A stretch of DNA of 64,000 nucleotides, from IMG/VR virus record IMGVR_UViG_3300044608_002890. The stretch is one strand, 5' to 3'. This stretch comes from a virus. Under the pieces are notes generated by a model. That model ran no database searches and was not told the DNA's origin. It saw only the letters and a list, made by a program, of their open reading frames with translations. Position numbers and translations under genes: made by a program. This document shows, piece after piece, positions 12,886-50,420 of the stretch (position 1 is its first letter; every line of letters begins with the position of its first letter).

Positions 12886-14175
12886 ATGTACGAATACGTA
12901 GCCAGTGGTACCAGCTATTTCAAGCTCATGTACCAGGAAAGTTATAGACGAGAGAATCTCGAAGTCTTTGAAAAGACCTTTGCCAGTCTCAATGGACAGC
13001 ATAAGCACAACATCAGTCTATTGTACAATGCCTTTACGGAATCCAGGACCGGTCCACGCATCAGAGAAAACTATGGATCAATGATTCATAGTGTGCATGC
13101 AGACTCCGGTGGCTTGCAGGTCATCACTCTAGGCAAGCAGATTACCCCAGAGCTCAAAGAGCAGGTCTATGCCAATCAGGCTCTGAATTCCACCATTGCC
13201 ATGTGCTTTGACATGATTCCAGTATCTACCCGAAGTGGCGATCGCAGTGGTCGATTGGATTTAGAAAATCGTTATTTTGATCATGACAAGCTGGAAGCCT
13301 GTGCACGTGAGACCGGAAAGAACCTAAGACGTCAGATTGACCATTTCGATGAGAAAAAGAGTCAGGCTCGCCCCATGCTCATTGCACAGGGCAACTGTTA
13401 TGACACCTACATGCGTTGGGTGGACTATATTGTTCAAGAATTAACTCCCTATCACATAAGTCGCATCGGCGGCATAGCCATGGGAGCTGCGGCTCTGGGC
13501 AAAGGTCCTCTGGAGGACATCAAGCGAGCATTTTACTTTACCAAGTTGCCCATTGAACTACAGAGTCCGCACATGCACTTGTTGGGCGTGGGCAGTGTTT
13601 ATAGACTGTTGCCCAACATCATATTCTTTCAGAACGGACTATACGAAGGCGTTGAACTAAGCTATGACAGCACAACGCATACCAGCGGAGTAACGCAGGG
13701 TCGTTATTACTTGACTGGTGATAGAGTCATCAATGGCAAGTATCGTACCAGCGAATATCAGTTGTCGTTCACCAGAACCTTTGACGATAACTATAGAATC
13801 GTCTGGGAAGATATCTGCGCAATCTTTCCGTTCATGTCTCGTTACAGTCTCAACACCTTTTATGAAGTTCTTCAGATCAGCGCTCGTGATTACGAAGCCA
13901 AACATGGCAGCATAGATCCCAGCATTCAGATCTATATTGCCTATGTCAGTGCCTGCATCAAGAACTTCATGCGGCACGTAGAGCATGTTACTGAGAGTCG
14001 TGAAAATCTCATAGACTTTGCTCGCGGTGATGACAAGAATGCGTTTCATTTTCTATACGAAGTACAAAGCACCGATGATTTCAATCATTGGCTAAACAAC
14101 ATAGGCAAGACCATTGATAGTGAACCCGTAGCTGTCTCACAATCAAGCGTCGATTTAATGGAGATGATGTCATGA
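12886..14175 (+). CDS. dpdA: TGT-fold base-exchange transglycosylase, DpdA-like
   Basis: TGT motifs in order: ADSGGLQ, FDMIP, AQGN, GGIAMG, HLLGVG, YDSTTH; no CxCxxC zinc site; within the folE/queD/queE cluster. Confidence 0.8.
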   Translation: MYEYVASGTSYFKLMYQESYRRENLEVFEKTFASLNGQHKHNISLLYNAFTESRTGPRIRENYGSMIHSVHADSGGLQVITLGKQITPELKEQVYANQALNSTIAMCFDMIPVSTRSGDRSGRLDLENRYFDHDKLEACARETGKNLRRQIDHFDEKKSQARPMLIAQGNCYDTYMRWVDYIVQELTPYHISRIGGIAMGAAALGKGPLEDIKRAFYFTKLPIELQSPHMHLLGVGSVYRLLPNIIFFQNGLYEGVELSYDSTTHTSGVTQGRYYLTGDRVINGKYRTSEYQLSFTRTFDDNYRIVWEDICAIFPFMSRYSLNTFYEVLQISARDYEAKHGSIDPSIQIYIAYVSACIKNFMRHVEHVTESRENLIDFARGDDKNAFHFLYEVQSTDDFNHWLNNIGKTIDSEPVAVSQSSVDLMEMMS

Positions 14176-42401: not shown

Positions 42402-42617
42402 ATGGGTGATGCAGCGGGTGGATTTTTGGGTGTGTTTGAACAAAGAGTAGGTCAATTGAGAAAAAGACTAAAAGAAGAATTAGACAAAGACAAACCCATC
42501 CGCTGTCGTAGAACACTTAAAAAGATTATAAAAGAAATAAAAGAATGGGAAGATGTTCTACATCAACATCGCAAAGATACAAGAAGGTGCCCGCATTGTG
42601 GTGAAAAGTTAGAATAA
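42402..42617 (+). CDS. Hypothetical protein with C-terminal CPHCG
   Basis: 71-aa ORF, AGGTG SD. Confidence 0.5.
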   Translation: MGDAAGGFLGVFEQRVGQLRKRLKEELDKDKPIRCRRTLKKIIKEIKEWEDVLHQHRKDTRRCPHCGEKLE

Positions 42618-42634
42618 TTTAAAGAGGTAACGTT

Positions 42635-42841
42635 ATGCAAGAACTCTTTTGGGATATAAAATTCAACGGTATGTACATAGGTACCGCTCCTGATAGTTTA
42701 AAAGATATCTATGTGCGCTGGTACTTGCTCATGAACAATAGGCCCGATGTGCATTCTACAGACCACATTGAATATGCTCTAAGACACCCGGTCAATCTTA
42801 GAAATGATCTAGATACCTGGAGAGTTCTTGATTTGGCTTAA
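42635..42841 (+). CDS. Hypothetical protein
   Basis: 68-aa ORF, GAGGT SD. Confidence 0.5.
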   Translation: MQELFWDIKFNGMYIGTAPDSLKDIYVRWYLLMNNRPDVHSTDHIEYALRHPVNLRNDLDTWRVLDLA

Positions 42842-42860
42842 AAATATTCAAGAAACGGTC

Positions 42861-42889
42861 TTGACCGTCAGATAAAACATATATATAAT
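42861..42889 (+). promoter_or_regulatory. Sigma70-like promoter
   Basis: TTGACC-17 bp-TATAAT. Confidence 0.65.
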
Positions 42890-42912
42890 GTAAGCATCAA
42901 AAGGAGATAATA

Positions 42913-43242
42913 GTGATCCGTAAACTAGCCGCAGCAGCAATTGCCCTGAGCCTCAGTAGCTCGGTGCTTGCCTACGGCCCACACGGACATAGACACTATC
43001 ATCACCATCATCGTCATGGGTCCCATTGGGTTGGTCCAGCTGTTGCCGGCGTTGTTCTCGGTACAGTCATAGCCAATGCCTATGCCAGACCACCGCTTGT
43101 GATCCAGGAGCCCGTCTATGTTAATCCGGTGCCTCCGACCATAGTAGTTCCAACGCAATGTTGGATAGAGTTTACAAATCCCTATACGGGAATCAGAGAG
43201 ACCCAGCTAGTCGATTGTAAACGAATTAGTTCAGCGCAGTAG
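42913..43242 (+). CDS. Secreted His/Pro-rich small protein
   Basis: GTG start after AGGAG; signal peptide, His run, Gly-zipper-like helix, Pro-rich tail. Confidence 0.65.
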   Translation: MIRKLAAAAIALSLSSSVLAYGPHGHRHYHHHHRHGSHWVGPAVAGVVLGTVIANAYARPPLVIQEPVYVNPVPPTIVVPTQCWIEFTNPYTGIRETQLVDCKRISSAQ

Positions 43243-43249
43243 AACAGTC

Positions 43250-43344
43250 GGTAGGTAGCACAGGTGTGCGGCGGGGTCTTATAAGCCCTGGAGACTGGTC
43301 AGATGGGCTGGAACGGAAAGGTTCGATTCCTTTACCTACTACCA
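43250..43344 (+). tRNA. trnI: tRNA-Ile(UAU) with an unusually long extra arm
   Basis: Acceptor GGTAGGT/ACCTACT+ACCA; anticodon loop CTTATAA; T arm AAAGG-TTCGATT-CCTTT; 95 nt. Confidence 0.75.
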
Positions 43345-43361
43345 AATATAGAAAAAATAGC

Positions 43362-43390
43362 TTGACAACTAGAGCCTAAGGTACTATAAT
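43362..43390 (+). promoter_or_regulatory. Sigma70-like promoter for the tRNA array
   Basis: TTGACA-17 bp-TATAAT (perfect consensus). Confidence 0.85.
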
Positions 43391-43402
43391 TATGTTTTAA
43401 AT

Positions 43403-43481
<79 letters not shown>

Positions 43482-43489
43482 AAATTTGC

Positions 43490-43518
43490 TTGACAACAAG
43501 TTGTAGTAATGCTAGAAT
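43490..43518 (+). promoter_or_regulatory. Sigma70-like promoter with extended -10
   Basis: TTGACA-17 bp-TAGAAT with TG; abuts the tRNA-Phe 5' end. Confidence 0.6.
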
Positions 43519-43594
43519 GCTTCCTAAGCTAATCTAGTGAAAGCGTCGGTCTGAAGAACCGAAGAGCCTGGAGCGAAACCAGGAGGGAGCACCA
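43519..43594 (+). tRNA. trnF: tRNA-Phe(GAA), atypical T loop
   Basis: TCGGT-CTGAAGA-ACCGA; T arm CCTGG-AGCGAAA-CCAGG; ACCA end. Confidence 0.85.
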
Positions 43595-43728
43595 TGTACA
43601 CTCGCAGTCCGAAGGATAGTTTTTTGAGATTCATGCAAAATGCCTATGCCGATACCAATCTAACTCTAGCAGAGATTGTTGTGTTGGTCTTATGCGTAAT
43701 TTTGGGGATATATTATGTCTTTGTCTAA
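43594..43728 (+). CDS. Possible 44-aa membrane microprotein
   Basis: C-terminal hydrophobic helix; overlaps the start of the next ORF; no clear SD. Confidence 0.3.
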   Translation: MYTRSPKDSFLRFMQNAYADTNLTLAEIVVLVLCVILGIYYVFV

Positions 43729-44140
43729 AGAACCATTCTTCAGCATAACAGCTCGTGATTGTGAGTGGAGTTATACCCGGGGCACCGGTGCCGGTGGACA
43801 GAAGCGCAACAAGACCAGTTCCGCTGTCCATTGCATTCACAAGGCATCCGGAGCCCACGGATATAGCGAAAGCAGCAGAAGTCAGCTTGACAATCGGAAA
43901 GATGCCTTTAAAAAGATGGCCGAGACCGATAAGTTTAAACGATGGATTCACATTGAATACATGAAGCGAACCGGAGAGTATTTAGAAGCCGAAAGACAGT
44001 TGGAAAAAAGCTTGACAAAAGTTCGTCTAGAGGTTAAAATAGATGGACGATGGACAGAAGTGCGAGCCGACCAGCTTGTAGATGATCCAGATAATTTTGA
44101 TTTTAGTTTCCTAGAGGAGAGTCCAGATGGGCAGCGATAA
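43715..44140 (+). CDS. Standalone release-factor (RF-1) GGQ-domain protein, ArfB/PrfH-like peptidyl-tRNA hydrolase
   Basis: YTRGTGAGGQKRNKTSSAV...H..SG...SRSQLDNRKDAF. Confidence 0.85.
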   Translation: MSLSKEPFFSITARDCEWSYTRGTGAGGQKRNKTSSAVHCIHKASGAHGYSESSRSQLDNRKDAFKKMAETDKFKRWIHIEYMKRTGEYLEAERQLEKSLTKVRLEVKIDGRWTEVRADQLVDDPDNFDFSFLEESPDGQR

Positions 44141-44155
44141 GGTACGAAAGATACT

Positions 44156-44230
44156 GCGGGTATGGCGAAATGGTATCGCATCAGGCTTTTAACCTGTAAG
44201 TTCGGGGTTCGAATCCCTGTGCCCGCACCA
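44156..44230 (+). tRNA. trnK: tRNA-Lys(UUU)
   Basis: GCGGGTA/TGCCCGC; loop CTTTTAA; GGTTCGAATCC; ACCA. Confidence 0.9.
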
Positions 44231-44293
44231 TATTCAAGCACATTGCCGAACAGACAAATGGCGGCAAGCCGATGAGCAGTGTGTTTGAATATG
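44229..44293 (+). repeat. Inverted-repeat cassette 1
   Basis: CATATTCAAGCACA ... TGTGTTTGAATATG; the left arm starts inside the tRNA-Lys CCA. Confidence 0.85.
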
Positions 44294-44296
44294 TTA

Positions 44297-44371
44297 GGGC
44301 TGGTAGTGATAATGGGAGCACGGGGCCTTTGCACGGCTCAGGTAAGAGTTCGATTCTCTTTCGGTCCACCA
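44297..44371 (+). tRNA. trnA: tRNA-Ala(UGC)
   Basis: Loop TTTGCAC; G3-U70 identity pair; ACCA. Confidence 0.88.
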
Positions 44372-44374
44372 ATT

Positions 44375-44449
44375 AGGGGTGTAGTATAACGGTCAGTACA
44401 ACGGGCTTTGAACTCGTGGGTCTAGGTTCGATTCCTGGCACCCCCGCCA
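44375..44449 (+). tRNA. trnQ: tRNA-Gln(UUG)
   Basis: ACGGG-CTTTGAA-CTCGT; G discriminator; CCA. Confidence 0.88.
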
Positions 44450-44461
44450 ATGGAGATAGAC

Positions 44462-44686
44462 ATGGTAAGAAAAACTAAGGTGGCTGAGAAGCCTGCAAAG
44501 AAAGAAGCAAAAGTTGCACCAGTCAAGAAGCCCAAACAGGCCAAGATCGAAGTTGATGCTGTAGAACAAGTTAAAGATGGCACTTATAAAGGTGAATATA
44601 GTACTTCTTCATACAACAAAGGAGAACTAATTAGTTTTGATATTGATTGGGATCGATTGAAAGAACATTTACGGAAGGTTGGCTGA
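44462..44686 (+). CDS. Hypothetical protein with Lys/Ala/Pro-rich N-terminus
   Basis: GGAG SD at 44452; stop codon lies inside tRNA-Ser(GCU). Confidence 0.55.
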   Translation: MVRKTKVAEKPAKKEAKVAPVKKPKQAKIEVDAVEQVKDGTYKGEYSTSSYNKGELISFDIDWDRLKEHLRKVG

Positions 44687-44764
44687 GAGGCTCAAGGCAG
44701 CGGTTTGCTAAACCGTCGATTCAGGAAACTGGGTCCGTGGGTTCGAATCCCACACCTTCCACCA
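44673..44764 (+). tRNA. trnS: tRNA-Ser(GCU)
   Basis: GCGGT-TTGCTAA-ACCGT; long variable arm; GGAAGGT/ACCTTCC. Confidence 0.92.
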
Positions 44765-44765
44765 G

Positions 44766-44840
44766 GCTGATGTAGATCAGTGGTAGATCGCTGACTTGGT
44801 AAGTCAGAGGCCGTGAGTTCAATCCTCGCCATCAGCACCA
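44766..44840 (+). tRNA. trnT: tRNA-Thr(GGU)
   Basis: CTGAC-TTGGTAA-GTCAG; GCTGATG/CATCAGC. Confidence 0.92.
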
Positions 44841-44846
44841 AAAGAG

Positions 44847-45353
44847 ATGAAAATGTTAGATCTACATGTATTTGACAATGTATTTGATGACAAAGTTTTA
44901 AATGCATATCTGAAACGCATCACCGAACATTTTGCGGTACAGCAGCAGACCGGTGAAGTATTACAATGGCATCCGCATCGAAACATTAGATTGGATGTGC
45001 AAGATCCCATGGTATTAGAAGTTAAAGAATTTTTGCAATCCAAACTAAGAATGCGTACCAGTTGTTATGATGTAGAACTACAGACCTGGCCCATAGGTTC
45101 CTACAGCGATTTGCATTGTCATGACAAGACCAATTATGGACGTGCTGGTCTAGGAGACTATAACAGTTTACTGTATTTGAACGATGATTTTGAAGGTGGT
45201 GAATTTTTTACGGAGCACGGCATTACCATTGTACCAAAAAAGAATAGACTCACATTTTTTGATGGGTATAGAATAGCGCACGGTCTTAGGACTGTAGAAA
45301 AACGCAACAGGCATACATTGATTTTTTGGTGGTCAAACACCATGTGGTTGTAG
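44847..45353 (+). CDS. 2OG-Fe(II) oxygenase (prolyl-4-hydroxylase-like)
   Basis: W..GSYSDLHCHD, LLYLNDDFEGGEF, PKKNRLTFF, HGL, R.TLIFW. Confidence 0.85.
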   Translation: MKMLDLHVFDNVFDDKVLNAYLKRITEHFAVQQQTGEVLQWHPHRNIRLDVQDPMVLEVKEFLQSKLRMRTSCYDVELQTWPIGSYSDLHCHDKTNYGRAGLGDYNSLLYLNDDFEGGEFFTEHGITIVPKKNRLTFFDGYRIAHGLRTVEKRNRHTLIFWWSNTMWL

Positions 45354-45546
45354 TATCCCCGGACCTATGCCGGTTATCAGAGGCGCGACAAGACCAGCGT
45401 TAGGAGTCTTAGGTTTCTTTTTTCCTCCCTCTGGGCCATTCATCCAGCAGGGTAAAACAAAAGATAGGACGTGTCATCCGATACACAAGACACTGGACAG
45501 GGCAATACCTCATGTCGGGGCTCTTGGGAAAGAGTAGCCGATACCA
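45354..45546 (+). ncRNA. Candidate structured ncRNA A, ending in ACCA
   Basis: No long ORF; CAGAGG/CCTCTG helix, AGG-GCAA-TACCT and GCTCTT-GGGA-AAGAGT hairpins; family not recognised. Confidence 0.35.
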
Positions 45547-45646
45547 TATTGAAGCACACTTGAAGACCCGTCAAGGACCAACGCTACGATGCATAGACAT
45601 ATAAGCCGGGGCGAAAAAGTTTGGTATTAGTGTGTTTCAATATGGT
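45543..45646 (+). repeat. Inverted-repeat cassette 2
   Basis: ACCATATTGAAGCACACT ... AGTGTGTTTCAATATGGT, 68-nt insert. Confidence 0.9.
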
Positions 45647-45770
45647 AGCAATACCATAACACGTGGCCATCAGCGTGTATAAAGGCGGCGAGTCTTAAAC
45701 GAAGTCGGTGACGGGATAGGTAGAACAGTTACTCCGAAAATGTAACGCCGGATTTTGTAACCGGCAACCA
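45644..45770 (+). ncRNA. Candidate ncRNA B (GGT...ACCA) between cassettes 2 and 3
   Basis: Ends in GCCGG-ATTTTGTAA-CCGGC hairpin plus AACCA. Confidence 0.3.
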
Positions 45771-45868
45771 TATTGAAGCACATTCCTGCCGTATTGGTCT
45801 ACGGTTCGAAAAGCGATAGGACCTAGAGTAACCGCCTAGGGAGTTTGAAGAGTGTGTTTCAATATGGT
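45767..45868 (+). repeat. Inverted-repeat cassette 3
   Basis: ACCATATTGAAGCACATTC ... GAGTGTGTTTCAATATGGT; insert has CCGTA/TACGG and CCTAG/CTAGG hairpins. Confidence 0.9.
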
Positions 45869-46063
45869 GAGTAGGAAGTAACCGTGAGCCGACTTGGTGA
45901 GGTTGCAGACTAAAGATCAACTTCGACCGCGTAGATAGTCCGGACTATCGTTTGAAACGGAAGATGCATCCATCCCCTGCCCTACTGATCATAAGTCCGA
46001 TGTGAAATGAAGGTCAAAGTTTTTCGAGACTCAATTGGCAGTGATTTTCATCTTAGGACACCA
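45866..46063 (+). ncRNA. Candidate ncRNA C between cassettes 3 and 4
   Basis: GTAGG/CCTAC long-range helix; perfect 16-bp palindrome GATAGTCCGGACTATC at 45934-45949; ends in ACCA. Confidence 0.35.
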
Positions 46064-46200
46064 TATTGAAGCGCATTTCAAAATCCCGAAACTTTCTAGC
46101 ACGGGTCGACACAACCTAGAAAGCAACCGAAAAAAGGGTAAGATTGCAAGAGTGGGATACTCGGCGGTGAGAATCCGCAGGAAGTGTGTTTCAATATGGT
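46060..46200 (+). repeat. Inverted-repeat cassette 4
   Basis: ACCATATTGAAGCGCATTTC ... GAAGTGTGTTTCAATATGGT; about 100-nt structured insert (TTTCTAG/CTAGAAA, GCGG/CCGC). Confidence 0.9.
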
Positions 46201-46393
46201 AGATTAAAAATTAGTCCCGCCACACCTGTTGCTCAAATCCCTAGAGTTAGCGGTGCTCCCAGGGCGAGGCGGGTGCAAGCCCCGTCAACTAAAATACACT
46301 TGCAATTGGCGCTGCAAGGTACGGATGTCTAGCCTGAGGACTGTCGTCCAAGACACAGAAGACAATATGAAACCAGTTTAGGGACTGGTGCCA
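46198..46393 (+). ncRNA. Candidate ncRNA D between cassettes 4 and 5
   Basis: T-arm-like GCGGG-TGCAAGC-CCCGT; ends in ACCAGT-TTAGGG-ACTGGT hairpin plus GCCA. Confidence 0.35.
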
Positions 46394-46455
46394 TATTGAA
46401 GCACATTGCTGCGAACAGGTTGATCGCTGTATCTGGTAGTGTGTTTCAATATGGT
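46390..46455 (+). repeat. Inverted-repeat cassette 5
   Basis: GCCATATTGAAGCACATTGCT ... GGTAGTGTGTTTCAATATGGT; final GGT is the 5' end of the next tRNA. Confidence 0.9.
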
Positions 46456-46528
46456 AATGTAGCATAGCGGCTAATGCAGCACCTTCATACGGTGCCTATC
46501 GTCAGTTCGAGTCTGACCATTACTACCA
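46453..46528 (+). tRNA. trnM: tRNA-Met(CAU)
   Basis: GCACC-TTCATAC-GGTGC; GGTAATG/CATTACT; ACCA. Confidence 0.85.
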
Positions 46529-46533
46529 GTTAT

Positions 46534-46625
46534 GGAGGGTTAACCGAGCTGGGCTCGGCACTGTCTTGAAAACAGAGGGATTGGCGATGAGCCGGTTGGA
46601 GTTCGATTCTACCAGCCCTCCTCCA
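46534..46625 (+). tRNA. trnS: tRNA-Ser(UGA)
   Basis: Loop CTTGAAA; long variable arm; GGAGGGT/GCCCTCC; U discriminator and imperfect T stem. Confidence 0.8.
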
Positions 46626-46634
46626 AAAAAATGC

Positions 46635-46662
46635 TTGACAACTAGCATCAAGGTGCTAGAAT
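46635..46662 (+). promoter_or_regulatory. Sigma70-like promoter with extended -10
   Basis: TTGACA-16 bp-TAGAAT (GTGCTAGAATAG). Confidence 0.7.
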
Positions 46663-46680
46663 AGTAGTTGTAGTAATTAT

Positions 46681-46757
46681 TCCAGGACGGCCACAAGGTG
46701 GGGCAGCGGACTGTTAATCCGTTCATCAGGTAGGTTCGATTCCTACTCCTGGAGCCA
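46681..46757 (+). tRNA. trnN: tRNA-Asn(GUU)
   Basis: GCGGA-CTGTTAA-TCCGT; TCCAGGA/TCCTGGA; GCCA. Confidence 0.92.
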
Positions 46758-46759
46758 AT

Positions 46760-46837
46760 GTTGGGATGGCAGAGAGGTCCAATGCAAGTGCCTGCAAAGC
46801 ACTACGGTCGTCGGTTCGAATCCGACTCCCAACTCCA
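46760..46837 (+). tRNA. trnC: tRNA-Cys(GCA)
   Basis: AGTGC-CTGCAAA-GCACT; U discriminator. Confidence 0.92.
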
Positions 46838-46851
46838 GAATGTAAGAATTT

Positions 46852-46926
46852 GGTCTGTTAGTTCATCGGTAAGAATAGCGGCTTGTCACGCCGCAGAGAC
46901 GGGTTCGATTCCCGTACAGACCGCCA
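46852..46926 (+). tRNA. trnD: tRNA-Asp(GUC)
   Basis: GCGGC-TTGTCAC-GCCGC; GCCA. Confidence 0.93.
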
Positions 46927-46933
46927 AGTTTAT

Positions 46934-47008
46934 GCACCGTTCGACTATCGGTTAGGTCACTAGACTTTCAATCTGGAGAGACGGGTTCGACTCCCGTACG
47001 GTGTACCA
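46934..47008 (+). tRNA. trnE: tRNA-Glu(UUC)
   Basis: CTAGA-CTTTCAA-TCTGG. Confidence 0.92.
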
Positions 47009-47016
47009 AGAATTAT

Positions 47017-47090
47017 CTCGGTGTAGTATAATGGCATTACGTCGGTCTCCAAAACCGGTTATGGCGGTTCGAATCCGTCCACCGAGGCCA
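47017..47090 (+). tRNA. trnW: tRNA-Trp(CCA)
   Basis: Loop CTCCAAA; CTCGGTG/CACCGAG; GCCA. Confidence 0.92.
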
Positions 47091-47091
47091 T

Positions 47092-47168
47092 ACCACTGTA
47101 GCTCAGTTGAATAGAGTGCCTGGCTACGAACCAGGAGGTCGTGGGTTTGAATCCTGCCAGTGGTGCCA
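47092..47168 (+). tRNA. trnR: tRNA-Arg(ACG)
   Basis: CCTGG-CTACGAA-CCAGG. Confidence 0.92.
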
Positions 47169-47176
47169 GTTTTAAA

Positions 47177-47265
47177 GGGACCTGCCCCTATCAGCGGACT
47201 GTAAATCCGTCGTCAGAAAACCGATAGGAAGTAGACAAGTGGAGCGTTACCACCAGGGCCCACCA
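47177..47265 (+). tRNA. trnY: Atypical tRNA-Tyr(GUA)-like RNA lacking a normal D arm
   Basis: GCGGA-CTGTAAA-TCCGT; acceptor GGGACCT/AGGGCCC (one mismatch)+ACCA; T loop AGCGTTA; CCTATC pairs with GATAGG. Confidence 0.6.
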
Positions 47266-47269
47266 GATA

Positions 47270-47343
47270 CTCGGATTGGTGAAATGGTATCATTCGTGCT
47301 TTGGGAGCATGAGGCGCAAGTTCGATTCTTGCATCCGAGACCA
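47270..47343 (+). tRNA. trnP: tRNA-Pro(UGG)
   Basis: CGTGC-TTTGGGA-GCATG; CTCGGAT/ATCCGAG. Confidence 0.92.
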
Positions 47344-47348
47344 GTAAT

Positions 47349-47422
47349 GGTGTTGTTAGTGTAGTGGTTGCACACCTGTCTGTGAAACAGGTAGAGAGGG
47401 TTCGATTCCCCACTTCACCCCA
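47349..47422 (+). tRNA. trnH: tRNA-His(GUG), imperfect stems
   Basis: CCTGT-CTGTGAA-ACAGG; G-1:C73; two U-U mismatches in the acceptor stem. Confidence 0.75.
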
Positions 47423-47426
47423 GTTT

Positions 47427-47503
47427 GCCCCGGTGACGGAATAGGTATACGTGTTGGTCTTAGAAACCAAATTTTGGGAGTTCGACTCTCCCCTGGGGCA
47501 CCA
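47427..47503 (+). tRNA. trnL: tRNA-Leu(UAG) with short variable loop
   Basis: TTGGT-CTTAGAA-ACCAA; no class II arm; ACCA. Confidence 0.85.
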
Positions 47504-47513
47504 TATATACGGC

Positions 47514-48152
47514 ATGAAACCAAAAGCCGCCGTATTTGTGCATCATCCTCAGTGCAGCATCCAAAGTGCACATGGCATAGTTAGAACGTTGTACGATGAT
47601 TTTGACATAGATTGCATAGGCAAACCGGATTTAAATGATAGGAAACTTAAGAAGTATGACATACTATGTGTGCCTGGTGGCATAGGCGACAGTGATACCT
47701 GGCATGCGATCCTGGAAGATCAGGCCCACAGTCTGAGAAATTTTACGGCTAGTGGTCGACGTTACCTGGGTATTTGCATGGGGGCATATTGGGCCGGACA
47801 GCATTATTTGAAGTTGTTGGATGGTGTAGATGCAGTACAGTACATTAAAAGACCGGGTGCAGACATACTACGAAGTTTCGGCACCGTTGCCAGCATAGAT
47901 TGGTTGGGTCAAAACGAAAACATGTATTTTTACGATGGTTGTAGTTTGCTGGGTGATGAAGCCCGGTTTAGAACCATAGCACGATATAGCAATGGCGATG
48001 CAGCTGCCATCATACAGGACAACATAGGCTGCATAGGACCACATCCCGAAAGCGATGTGTATTGGTATAGCAAGAAGTTCATGCGGCCCTACTGGCATGA
48101 GTACAGGCATCATGAACTGCTTAGAAATTTTGTAAAGGAAATGTTTGTTTAA
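47514..48152 (+). CDS. Class I glutamine-amidotransferase-like protein (BPL_N-like)
   Basis: LCVPGG, YLGICMGAYWAG nucleophile elbow, IGPHPES; start set at ATG 47514 because the upstream in-frame part is tRNA-Leu. Confidence 0.75.
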   Translation: MKPKAAVFVHHPQCSIQSAHGIVRTLYDDFDIDCIGKPDLNDRKLKKYDILCVPGGIGDSDTWHAILEDQAHSLRNFTASGRRYLGICMGAYWAGQHYLKLLDGVDAVQYIKRPGADILRSFGTVASIDWLGQNENMYFYDGCSLLGDEARFRTIARYSNGDAAAIIQDNIGCIGPHPESDVYWYSKKFMRPYWHEYRHHELLRNFVKEMFV

Positions 48153-48224
48153 GCGGGTTGTTAGAGGAATACGTTTGGCCTTCCAAGCCGAAAGATGCAG
48201 GTTCGATGCCTGTAGCCCGCTCCA
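48153..48224 (+). tRNA. trnG: tRNA-Gly(UCC)
   Basis: TTGGC-CTTCCAA-GCCGA; GCGGGTT/AGCCCGC; TCCA. Confidence 0.85.
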
Positions 48225-48226
48225 TA

Positions 48227-48301
48227 CCCGGATTAGCTCAGAGGAAGAGCAGCGTCTTGATAAGGCGAAGGCGGATGGATCGTTACCATCATCCGGGACC
48301 A
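48227..48301 (+). tRNA. trnI: tRNA-Ile(GAU)
   Basis: Loop TTGATAA; T loop ATCGTTA; CCCGGAT/ATCCGGG. Confidence 0.88.
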
Positions 48302-48308
48302 GTTTTTC

Positions 48309-48383
48309 GCAGGATTAATTCAGTGGTAGAATGTCTCGTTGCCAACGAGAATGTCAAGGGTTCGAATCCCTTATCCTGCTCCA
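48309..48383 (+). tRNA. trnG: tRNA-Gly(GCC)
   Basis: TCTCG-TTGCCAA-CGAGA; TCCA. Confidence 0.93.
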
Positions 48384-48384
48384 T

Positions 48385-48459
48385 TGGGAATTAGCTCAGC
48401 GGTAGAGCAACGCCCTTACAAGGCGAAGGTCCACAGTTCGATCCTGTGATTCCCAACCA
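48385..48459 (+). tRNA. trnV: tRNA-Val(UAC)
   Basis: Loop CTTACAA; TGGGAAT/ATTCCCA. Confidence 0.9.
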
Positions 48460-48481
48460 AATGATGAAAGAGGAGATCATC

Positions 48482-49036
48482 ATGCCAGTGCTTGCCCTAG
48501 ATGTTTCAGGTACACCACGACAGTGGATCAGCAACGAAGATGCCATTAGCTATCAGGCCACCGACAGCGTAGCCTGGAGCATGGGCGATGTCGTTGTTCG
48601 CTACAGAGGTGGTACTCAAAGGACCGGCACCAAAAGCTATCTAGAGTGTGCAAGCATCATAGCCATCAAGGGGCATGGGTTCAATCCACACAAGCATGCC
48701 AAGGTAGCTTTGAGCAATCGAACCTTATTTGGTCGTGACCGAATGATGTGCGCATACTGTGGTACGCAGCATGCCAGTGCCGGCAAATTAAGCCGTGACC
48801 ACATTGTGCCACGCAGCCGTGGCGGCTCCGATGCCTGGATGAATGTTGTAACGGCTTGTCGTAGTTGCAACAGCAAAAAAGACAACTTGACCCTCAAAGA
48901 AAGTGGCATGGAGTTGCTGTACGTACCCTATGTGCCTAACCATTTTGAGAACATGATACTTCAGAATAGAAATATTCTTACCGATCAAATGGATTACCTG
49001 ATGTCTGGTGTACCCAGACACAGTAGACTGCTTTAG
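48482..49036 (+). CDS. HNH endonuclease
   Basis: RDRMMCAYCG, SRDHIVPRSRGG, WMNVVTACRSCNSKK; GAGGAG SD. Confidence 0.9.
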   Translation: MPVLALDVSGTPRQWISNEDAISYQATDSVAWSMGDVVVRYRGGTQRTGTKSYLECASIIAIKGHGFNPHKHAKVALSNRTLFGRDRMMCAYCGTQHASAGKLSRDHIVPRSRGGSDAWMNVVTACRSCNSKKDNLTLKESGMELLYVPYVPNHFENMILQNRNILTDQMDYLMSGVPRHSRLL

Positions 49037-49109
49037 CCCTCTTAGTTAAATGGTATAACATCGGCTTTGTAACCCGAAATTATCTGTTCGATTCAGTTAG
49101 GGGGCACCA
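49036..49109 (+). tRNA. trnT: tRNA-Thr(UGU)
   Basis: Loop TTTGTAA; GCCCTCT/AGGGGGC; mismatches in anticodon and T stems; first base shared with the HNH stop. Confidence 0.8.
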
Positions 49110-49113
49110 GCAT

Positions 49114-49188
49114 ACCACCGTAGTCTAATGGAAAGGCAACGCTCTTCTAAAGCGTCCTATGGGGGTTCGAGTCCCTCCGGTGGTGCCA
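49114..49188 (+). tRNA. trnR: tRNA-Arg(UCU)
   Basis: ACGCT-CTTCTAA-AGCGT; ACCACCG/CGGTGGT. Confidence 0.92.
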
Positions 49189-49190
49189 GT

Positions 49191-49265
49191 TGCGGGGTAG
49201 CTCAGTAGAAGAGCGCCGGGCTCATAATCCGGAGGTCGGGGGTGCGACTCCCTCTCCCGCTACCA
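49191..49265 (+). tRNA. trnM: tRNA-fMet(CAU), initiator-like
   Basis: Unpaired 1:72 (U/U); CCGGG-CTCATAA-TCCGG; ACCA. Confidence 0.8.
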
Positions 49266-49272
49266 GCAAGAA

Positions 49273-49307
49273 GGGTGCGTATATGCCCAAAAGGCTATAC
49301 GCGACCC
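49273..49307. terminator. Strong hairpin at the convergence of the tRNA array and the minus-strand block
   Basis: GGGT-GCGTATA ... TATACGC-G-ACCC with inner GCC/GGC; no U tract, so termination is unproven. Confidence 0.4.
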
Positions 49308-49324
49308 ATACATCAATCCACCAT

Positions 49325-49729
49325 TCAACCGGACTTGGCTTCATCTTTTTTGTCTTTGTCCGCAGCTCTCTGAGCAGCAGCACCTGCCATGGCAGCTTCC
49401 TTGCCTGTACCAGCCAGCATGATGCCGCTTAGTGTACCGCATAAGAAAGTGGCTACTGGTATGATGAGTTCAAAAAACTTCTGATCTATGGGACTGATGG
49501 CATTCAAGGGCTGAGTTACAAACATGATGCTGTATAGCACAGTAAATACAATGCCTATGAGAGTAAAGGCCAAACAGCATCCAATGATGAACTTAAGCCT
49601 GACCATGAGTTCGTTTTCGGTGTAGCGTTCACCCTTTTTGCTTCTAGCAGCATCTTGCTTGGGTGGTTCTGGTTTTGGTTCATCAGATTTTCCAAGCACC
49701 TTATCGATCATATCTTGCATTATTTGCAC
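49325..49729 (-). CDS. Two-TM membrane protein (holin-like topology)
   Basis: Two long hydrophobic helices; charged C-terminus. Confidence 0.6.
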   Translation of the reverse strand: MQIMQDMIDKVLGKSDEPKPEPPKQDAARSKKGERYTENELMVRLKFIIGCCLAFTLIGIVFTVLYSIMFVTQPLNAISPIDQKFFELIIPVATFLCGTLSGIMLAGTGKEAAMAGAAAQRAADKDKKDEAKSG

Positions 49730-49902
49730 TCCTTCTTGGCTTCTTCTTTAAAGATATGTTCAGGACAAGTTTTGTTGATGTCACACCAGGGTTTTTTGCA
49801 TATGTCTTTGTCCCAGTTATCGGGGTTCTGGCATGGATAACGATAGTAATCAGAACACCCTGATAACAATACCATGCCCAGAATACAAAGATACTTTACC
49901 AT
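49720..49902 (-). CDS. Small lipoprotein
   Basis: Lipobox LLSGC; further Cys residues (YPCQNP..W..DICKKPWC..NKTCPE). Confidence 0.65.
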   Translation of the reverse strand: MVKYLCILGMVLLSGCSDYYRYPCQNPDNWDKDICKKPWCDINKTCPEHIFKEEAKKECK

Positions 49903-50420
49903 GGCAACCACATCCACAGAGCCTGGCTGACTATGACAGATCCTATGGCACCGACAATGGTACTGACATAGAACATGGGCATGCTGGCTGCTAAGATGCT
50001 GGCAGTTAATAGTACAATGCTGATCTGAAGGATGCTACCACCCCAGGTAAACCATGGCGAACGTTTCTTGGCTTCATCACGTTCGGCTTCCAGTGCCTTG
50101 GCCTTTTCCTGGATTTCTTTCTTGTCATCGCTCATGCGTTTGGCTTCGGCAAGAAACTTATCTCGATTCTCGGGTTTCTGAGCTTCAGCAGCACTGATTT
50201 CATAAAGCACGCCACGTACATTCTTAGCCTGATACCAGGCCCACATGTTGTTGGCTTGTATGGTGTTGTTTTGAATTTTACTGGAATTTGAACCACCAAT
50301 CATGGTGTTGATGGCTAGCAGAGCCGCAAGAAACACAATTACAAAACCAGCTTTGTCTTTGATCCTAGCTTCTTTTTCGCTGCGAGTCAGCGGTTTTACT
50401 TCGGGTTTCTGTTCACTCAT
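49896..50420 (-). CDS. Membrane protein, DUF4337-like
   Basis: TM; WAWYQAKNVR; coiled coil; LQISIVL.TASIL TM hairpin. Confidence 0.65.
   Translation of the reverse strand: MSEQKPEVKPLTRSEKEARIKDKAGFVIVFLAALLAINTMIGGSNSSKIQNNTIQANNMWAWYQAKNVRGVLYEISAAEAQKPENRDKFLAEAKRMSDDKKEIQEKAKALEAERDEAKKRSPWFTWGGSILQISIVLLTASILAASMPMFYVSTIVGAIGSVIVSQALWMWLPW

Follow-up and report, generated by a model that had tools for sequence, protein, structure and literature searches.

We analysed a 64,000-nucleotide stretch of an uncultured phage (IMG/VR record IMGVR_UViG_3300044608_002890), referred to here as the window, in which five hairpin units with closely similar arms and unrelated inserts are set into a cluster of tRNA genes. 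They are members of a large and hitherto undescribed family of "clamp" hairpins, found in stable-RNA (tRNA) operons of T4-like and jumbo phages that live in fresh water and have not been cultured; the family has at least 370 units in at least 183 uncultured-phage contigs of IMG/VR, with one to six units per locus. We suggest that the clamp is an excisable hairpin, similar to the intervening sequences (IVSs) of 23S rRNA, that carries small RNAs and doubles as a joint for recombination, a reading to which we assign a probability of roughly 60%.

The five units had been noticed in a sequence-only reading of the window, which described them as copies sharing a pair of arms; all five stand where that reading placed them, to within 2 nt. 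A covariance model (R1), trained on 60 units that included window units 1, 2, 3 and 5 and run with filters off, finds in the 64 kb only the units listed here, with E-values of 1e-10 to 1e-13. Because four of the five had trained the model, unit 4 is the only independent test within the window. Insert lengths are those between the 15-nt arms.

44227..44295, + strand: unit 1 clamp hairpin, 56.5 bits, 37-nt insert, compensated arms TTCAA/TTGAA
45543..45646, + strand: unit 2 clamp hairpin, 72-nt insert, identified by its fold and by model R1
45767..45868, + strand: unit 3 clamp hairpin, 60.7 bits, 70-nt insert with a T-loop-like GGTTCGAA
46060..46200, + strand: unit 4 clamp hairpin, 49.9 bits, 109-nt insert, left arm GCGCA giving G.U where the other units have A-U
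46390..46455, + strand: unit 5 clamp hairpin, 56.9 bits, 34-nt insert, fold of -34.9 kcal/mol (z -6.7)

The 15-mer CCATATTGAAGCACA, with up to three mismatches, matches 13 times in the window against 3.2 expected, a number reached in none of 100 shuffles, and ten of the 13 matches are the five left (L) and five right (R) arms. Each unit folds as a stem of 18-23 bp with a branched or hairpinned insert (z from -4.6 to -6.7). Folds of the - strand are 5-15 kcal/mol less stable than those of the + strand, and model R1 scores the + strand 7-26 bits above the - strand at all five units. The double change in the arms of unit 1, the G.U of unit 4 and the G.U at AAGCAC/GTGTTT, kept in five of five units, had all been pointed out in the sequence-only reading and are present as described.

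That the stem covaries, and that it pairs as RNA of the + strand, had likewise been proposed, and both hold across the family. We sampled it by an exact 15-mer scan of IMG/VR, which gave at least 119 loci, and then with a looser pattern in which six stem positions were left free; counts given below refer to the 370 units and 183 loci among the matches listed. Nearly all loci with the exact 15-mer have L and R arms 35-130 nt apart, and all 110 matches of the looser pattern in new loci pair at five or more of the six free positions. Across 60 units the 18-bp stem is 96.6% paired, compared with 29-50% in controls in which the alignment is slid, and 11 stem pairs show double changes (47 cells), a result that none of 500 shuffles matches. 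In 343 unique units the helix extends 17-23 bp inward from the C:G pair, with a mode of 19-20 and one or two additional outer pairs, or about two helical turns; in the units of the window it measures 19-23 bp. Divergent members keep this length with a quite different sequence, retaining only the basal ACCAU...AUGGU. When the arms are oriented by the adjoining tRNA (216 units), G.U pairs outnumber A.C oppositions by 303 to 98; 167 of these units have a U.G close to the stem's top, and a mid-stem position is occupied by G.U, G-C or A-U. Selection acts on the RNA stem of the units.

One arm subclass, CCATATAAAAACACA / TGTGTTTCTATATGG (for example L002 8356-8439, L numbers denoting related loci), has a fixed sense-strand A.C at position 8 counted from the first C of the CCA and is without the usual U.G; its A.C would be G.U on the opposite strand. 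A MotA-box promoter in the R arm was considered and rejected: the R arms of the window read TGTTTCA and not TGCTTCA, and the match is on the wrong strand.

The arms are in register with tRNA ends, again as the sequence-only reading had claimed from units 1 and 5. The stem of unit 1 opens with the 3' CCA of tRNA-Lys, which makes up its first three bases, and the final GG of unit 5 is nucleotides 1-2 of tRNA-Met. In the family, 216 of the 370 units are in exact register, such that the first CCA of the unit is the 3' CCA of a tRNA or its last G or GG forms the first bases of one, and many of these sit exactly between two tRNAs. The non-tRNA upstream neighbours in the window (RNAs S1, S2 and S4, described below) finish with a small hairpin, one or two further bases and then CCA, and this hairpin-plus-NCCA end is a tRNA-like 3' end.

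The units also lie within a single transcription unit of the tRNA cluster, in which ARAGORN finds 24 tRNA genes. The features that define it are as follows.

44012..44040, + strand: sigma-70-like promoter TTGACA-17-TAAAAT, 11 of 12 consensus matches, the last strong + strand promoter before the array
44156..44230, + strand: tRNA-Lys(UUU), found by ARAGORN, its CCA shared with unit 1
44297..44371, + strand: tRNA-Ala(UGC), found by ARAGORN, beginning 2-3 nt past unit 1
46453..46528, + strand: tRNA-Met(CAU), found by ARAGORN, abutting unit 5 on its 3' side

The next strong sigma-70-like promoter on the + strand is at 46635. Between 44040 and 46635 that strand contains no promoter of at least 10 of 12 matches and no terminator, which indicates co-transcription of all five units with the genes from tRNA-Lys to tRNA-Met; a weak match (9 of 12) at 44285-44313 overlaps the R arm of unit 1. 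In unit-bearing phage records of 190-400 kb all matches of the model fall in one zone of 1-10 kb (four of four large records).

The inserts differ from unit to unit within this common frame. The 370 inserts form 228 sequence clusters, 148 of them singletons in the present sample. The cargo thus differs between related phages in which the arms are kept, an expectation that the sequence-only reading had set out. The insert family of unit 1 recurs with covarying arms in five loci (L013, L014, L033, L066, L082). It follows tRNA-Lys, tRNA-Gln or tRNA-Glu depending on the phage; conversely, tRNA-Glu(UUC) precedes 15 different insert clusters and tRNA-Lys 12. Within insert families the covarying inner helices and invariant loops are kept and the arms change by compensatory steps. 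As to the identity of the inserts, a hammerhead or K-turn in unit 1 was rejected because the core positions do not fit, and a group I intron because the inserts are too small.

Between the units of the window lie four further RNAs.

45354..45542, + strand: S1, structured non-coding RNA of about 190 nt upstream of unit 2, with a small 3' hairpin and then CCA
45647..45766, + strand: S2, spacer RNA of 120 nt, with a 5' GGUA-GCAA-UACC mini-hairpin and a 3' hairpin followed by AACCA
45869..46059, + strand: S3, spacer RNA of 191 nt, a mosaic of S3a (45869-45993) and S3b (45993-46059)
46201..46389, + strand: S4, spacer RNA of 189 nt, with a 3' hairpin CCAGU/ACUGG followed by UGCCA

S1 has seven homologues and 14 covarying pairs. 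An alternative view of it as a relic of an RF-1 gene (a 35-nt repeat; BLASTP E 0.005) was dropped because S1 covaries as a structured RNA. It also contains invariant single-stranded stretches, including a CCUCCC run, and matches no Rfam family. The spacer RNAs S2 to S4 occupy what might be called tRNA slots.

Several of these parts are shared, nearly unchanged, with phages that are otherwise well diverged. S2 is 97-100% identical in six loci (L011, L013, L033, L008, L117, L066); S3a is 98% identical in L011, L103 and L088, and S3b occurs apart from it, in L013, at 98.5%; homologues of S4 are 75-83% identical (L066, L089, L019). Unit 2 as a whole is 99-100% identical in L008, L011 and L035, the insert recurs at 100% identity in L017 and L080 as well, and in all five loci it follows tRNA-Ile(GAU). 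The unit 3 insert is 98.6% identical in L011. Taken as blocks, unit 2, R2-S2-U3-S3a and S3b-L4 (arms numbered by unit) match, at 97-100% identity, loci in which the identity of the ORFs and most tRNAs to those of the window is 68-85%, and the breakpoints in identity fall at the arms. RNA genes in the cluster do diverge, as is clear from the S1 homologue of L011, which is only 77% identical. In L008, L117 and L017, S1 is joined to S2 without unit 2, and an identical unit 2 follows tRNA-Ile elsewhere in L008. The S1/S2 junction is bounded by a pre-existing imperfect repeat of 12-15 nt with no target duplication, which is what homologous recombination would leave.

The pattern of sequence identities shows that units and spacer RNAs move between phages as modules. 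We suggest that co-infecting phages would recombine at the arms, shuffling inserts and spacer RNAs; because the arms are near-identical across all clamps, the clamps could act as short DNA homologies.

The possibility raised in the sequence-only reading of a tiny mobile element fares less well: the movement as modules stands, while the target duplication, shared interior and genome-wide spread expected of such an element were not found. In a stronger form of this idea the unit would be a selfish palindromic DNA element with tRNA 3' ends as its insertion sites and without a function as RNA, either akin to a miniature inverted-repeat transposable element (MITE) or propagated by a homing nuclease. 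The optional presence of unit 2, its identical copy in the same L008 contig, the mosaic identity and the terminal inverted repeats all fit such an element, as does the recurrence of HNH endonuclease genes beside units, one family of which is found in 25 related loci and, in the window, at 48446-49036 inside the tRNA cluster. Against it, the interiors of copies in one genome are unrelated (228 clusters), unlike those of MITEs; no target-site duplication is seen at the S1/S2 difference, and the flanking CCA...TGG is inverted and part of the stem. The copies are not dispersed, with only five in 64 kb and a single zone in each of the four large records. The sense-strand G.U bias and the conserved U.G point to selection on RNA, and old insert families have covarying arms. 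We consider a selfish element improbable.

The exchange of cassettes, with breakpoints at inverted repeats that are imperfect and variably spaced, also recalls the attC sites of integrons, in which case the arms would be sites for a site-specific recombinase and the RNA pairing would be incidental. This is very improbable. Among the 20 commonest neighbouring protein clusters there is no integrase or recombinase, the ten annotated ones being an RNaseH-like protein (PF04308), a metallophosphatase, T4 RNase H, two HNH endonucleases, dCMP deaminase, rubrerythrin, Hsp20, a phosphatase and one without a Pfam match, and no conserved recombinase gene was seen in the neighbourhoods examined. The arms are without the R''/R' core sites of attC and the cassettes are non-coding, without ORFs; in addition, the strand bias of the wobble pairs fits a transcript. 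The features tested contradict all three of these identities for the unit: transposon, attC-like site and terminator.

The array is expressed. Contigs from four freshwater or riverine metatranscriptome runs (three studies) cover 45360-46450 at high depth; being assembled contigs, they carry no information on RNA ends, strand or level, and their depths are summed over relatives. The highest depth of the stretch is on S1, above 1400 in two runs. S2 is covered in all four runs, as is 46080-46200, the 3' half of unit 4 with its insert and R arm; S3 is also covered, and S4 in one run (X18). No RNA contig in the four runs covers the ORFs at 44436-44603 and 44856-45191, which makes DNA carry-over unlikely. 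These non-coding RNAs are abundant. RNA contigs hardly touch the inserts of units 2 and 3 (cover 0-8), which lie beside well-covered spacers.

Some contigs join parts in an order other than that of the window: S2 or S3 comes after unit 4, unit 5 comes after S2, and no clamp separates S1 from S2 or S2 from S4. These joints represent relatives in which the modules are arranged differently. Contig ends that bear adapter sequence, at about 45366, 45504, 45725, 45753, 45878 and 46080, and contigs that begin at 45629 in four runs, are indistinguishable from fragmentation or assembly branch points. Two odd joints were also recorded: 45987>46182, which leads from S3a directly to an R arm in RNA contigs of two or three studies, and 46406>45631, which leads from an L arm directly to an R arm in one RNA contig. 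They are probably other module orders in relatives, or else may be reverse-transcription artefacts at repeats.

The reading of the clamp as an excisable hairpin draws on permuted tmRNA genes. Six related loci (L281, L076, L360, L297, L296, L051) contain permuted, two-piece tmRNA genes, and in the first four of these the 70-100-nt segment from the CCA of the acceptor piece to G1 of the coding piece forms a hairpin, with its stem starting at that CCA. In L281, L076 and L360 the segment carries the distal box of the clamp, GAA(G/A)CA(C/U)AUU ... AGU(G/A)UG(U/C)UUC. The intervening segment is missing from mature two-piece tmRNA (PMC11915505). Excision of the clamp is supported because the same type of stem thus forms the intervening segment of permuted tmRNA genes. 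Like the clamp, the tmRNA segment is flanked by a CCA 3' end and by the G1 of the tRNA-like piece that follows; being absent from the mature RNA (PMC11915505), it must be excised. Unlike the clamp, it occupies a single site in one gene, has no basal CCAUAUU/AAUAUGG and leaves 3-5 unpaired nt before G1. The processing signal suggested in the sequence-only reading gains support from these segments, and cleavage itself we infer.

We propose the following course of events. The operon transcript includes each unit on the tRNA-sense strand. A stem of about 20 bp starts by pairing the CCA 3' end of the preceding RNA, which may be a tRNA or a hairpin-plus-NCCA RNA, and finishes on the first G's of the following RNA. 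Host enzymes would then remove the unit, freeing the CCA end and the next 5' end. The variable insert is a separately evolving, small structured RNA borne by the clamp. If the unit is excised, host RNase III may well cut within the two-turn helix, followed by trimming by RNase P and exonucleases, a route that we hold somewhat short of even odds and that the two-turn helix and the analogy with IVSs would favour. It is also quite possible that the tRNA-end enzymes alone cut at the base and release an intact clamped hairpin, which the CCA/G1 register and the tmRNA precedent would favour. What is left falls to some other route. RNase III (PF14622) is absent from five large phage records. A PF04308 protein (RNaseH-like, formerly DUF458) lies 0.2-7 kb from units in 46 of the 183 loci, for example at L011 691-1161; its absence from the window and from two complete unit-bearing records means that it is not an obligate partner. 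With no phage RNase III and no other constant partner protein, a host enzyme is more likely.

Several observations weigh against excision, or against the form of it outlined above. The mature tRNA ends, after CCA and before G1, are staggered by 1 nt and RNase III leaves 2 nt, so RNase III cannot directly form both mature ends. Most tRNAs of the window are joined by spacers of 1-10 nt, and the clamp-free S1-S2 and S2-S4 joints of relatives, together with these short spacers, indicate that the clamp is not needed for the processing of its neighbours. This in turn suggests that the inserts themselves are what selection keeps. RNA contigs continue unbroken past an R arm to S2, and likewise from the insert of unit 4 across the R arm of that unit, and therefore at least some molecules are uncut at these places. 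A host enzyme of loose specificity leaves the strong conservation of arm sequence, and not just of pairing, without an account. Finally, 71 of the A.C cases fall at one position of one arm subclass (71 of the 216 tRNA-registered units).

The clamp could instead be a protective scaffold and not a disposable spacer. The tRNA-end enzymes would free the whole hairpin, and a blunt helix of about 17 bp would shield a functional insert RNA from exonucleases; the array would then serve primarily to express small RNAs, which might be decoys, tRNA mimics or protein sponges. In favour of this, insert families keep their sequence and their covarying internal helices through changes in the arms, and one of these families is shared by two classes of clamp. 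T-loop-like motifs are more frequent in the inserts than in shuffles (43 of 370, compared with 18.3 +/- 4.0), the exact CCA/G1 register would set the hairpin ends precisely, and the unit 4 insert and R arm are well covered by RNA contigs in four runs. On the other side, the inserts of units 2 and 3 have next to no RNA cover, in libraries that capture short structured RNAs badly; nearly two thirds of the insert clusters (148 of 228) are singletons in the sample; and targets or partners are known for none of the inserts. We regard protection as the main role as unlikely, and note that it overlaps the excision reading and does not exclude it.

A more general view can be put forward tentatively, and we regard it as rather less likely than not. 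The units would form a standardised cassette system in which a lake-phage pool of more than 200 small structured RNA families, including tRNA mimics, decoys and protein sponges, shares one universal clamp. The clamp would set the RNA ends via host tRNA-processing enzymes or RNase III and would serve as swap homology between co-infecting phages, much as integron cassettes do at the level of genes, and the phages would use the RNAs in taking over the host or countering its defences.

Double-stranded stems of about two turns that separate functional RNAs in a polycistronic precursor are familiar from the RNase III stalks of rRNA operons and from sites in the early region of phage T7. To our knowledge these stems have no single conserved sequence across many phages, no exchangeable inserts and no CCA register. 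The species 1 and 2 RNAs of T4 are small stable RNAs that are co-transcribed and co-processed with phage tRNAs; we know of no clamp stem or cassette organisation shared with them.

The closest analogy is with the IVSs of 23S rRNA, which are described as optional, sporadic stem-loops with complementary ends that are excised by RNase III (PMC4990558 and work cited there). Like the clamp, the IVS is an optional stem-loop in the precursor of a stable RNA, with a long, nearly perfect end stem and a variable interior (PMC4990558). The helix of the clamp is such a nearly perfect terminal stem of about two turns, and its presence is likewise optional and sporadic, as the absence of unit 2 between S1 and S2 in relatives and the S2-S4 joints of RNA contigs attest. 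The IVS is removed without re-ligation and its distribution suggests horizontal transfer (PMC4990558), a likeness that would extend to the clamp if it is excised as we propose. In contrast to the clamp, IVSs lie within rRNA helices, usually one or two per gene, and are not known to share a stem sequence across taxa. Clamps, for their part, occur in many copies with one stem, lie between tRNAs and small RNAs, start exactly on CCA and carry hundreds of conserved inserts.

As points of exchange, the clamps can be compared with the PeSL cassettes of T4-type phages, in which short conserved repeats also serve as homologous exchange points, joining sequences that are unrelated apart from the repeat, and modules are shuffled among close relatives (PMC2839356, PMC4122927). 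In both, the breakpoints of module exchange coincide with the repeat. Unlike clamps, PeSL cassettes combine a terminator-like stem-loop with an early promoter and flank protein ORFs in hyperplastic regions (PMC2839356, PMC4122927); clamps enclose or flank RNAs and are selected for RNA pairing. No promoter of at least 10 of 12 matches was found in or beside any unit, and no terminator.

The family is new to Rfam, to the literature searched and to cultured phages, with kin among intervening and processing stems and in repeat-mediated module exchange. The sequence-only reading had recognised no named RNA family, and none emerges from Rfam 15: a search of window positions 42500-50000 at E up to 1 returns only tRNAs and chance matches on tRNAs, and 15 related loci at the gathering score give only tRNAs and one group I intron. 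The bacterial Y RNA YrlA (RF02553), with its long stem and tRNA-like domain, gives only sub-threshold matches; these score 21-22 bits, where the gathering score is 69, and lie on pairs of tRNAs. Among isolate phages (50,697 records), a 70-nt unit query at E up to 10 finds no record with both arms, and the model has no match in S-CRM01, a freshwater T4-like cyanophage with many tRNAs. In 185,579 cellular species genomes the exact gapped pattern has no match; the loose pattern has 32, with proper pairing only in L124, L140 and perhaps L133, short contigs of metagenome-assembled genomes that are probably phage contigs. In the literature searched, the arm sequences appear in no paper and the family is described nowhere, although an IMG/VR survey of 10,006 motifs (PMC10690425) may include single units.

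The window phage is T4-like, judging from its genes: its gp43 polymerase is about 50% identical to cyanomyovirus gp43, and the window also encodes gp46-like and gp41-like proteins, PstS and 2-oxoglutarate (2OG) oxygenases. Its DNA is contained in many lake-water metagenomes. No cultured close relative was found, in that blastn of 44100-46700 against isolate phages matched tRNAs only.

Phage tRNA clusters are usually read as sets of tRNAs for codon usage or anti-defence; in this operon, non-tRNA RNAs organised by one conserved stem make up a large part. If our reading is correct, phages hold a large, unannotated reservoir of small RNAs, some of which rank with the most deeply covered phage sequences of the four metatranscriptome runs from lakes and rivers; a simple rule would set the ends of clamp-borne small RNAs, and there would be a mechanism for exchanging small RNAs between diverged phages. 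The clamp is also a search handle, since one short motif retrieves hundreds of candidate functional RNAs, and it could act as a natural scaffold for RNA expression from polycistronic transcripts.

Some further features lie close to the units. In L019 a solitary R-type arm at 13102 has a group I intron (13185-13378; Rfam, 53.4 bits) some 70 nt away. In the tRNA cluster of the window, a stand-alone RF-1/GGQ domain protein of 141 aa (PF00472) is encoded at 43715-44140. Two Rfam matches have no ARAGORN call: a tRNA at 43519-43591 (48 bits) and a tRNA-like match at 46534-46621, a long-arm tRNA that scores 44.3 bits with tRNA-Sec (cut-off 47). An A-rich motif followed by GCTTGACAAC is repeated at 43352-43372, 43480-43500, 44004-44018 and 46625-46645, forming near-consensus sigma-70 promoters in the tRNA cluster that recall the promoter cassettes of the PeSL type in T4-type phages.

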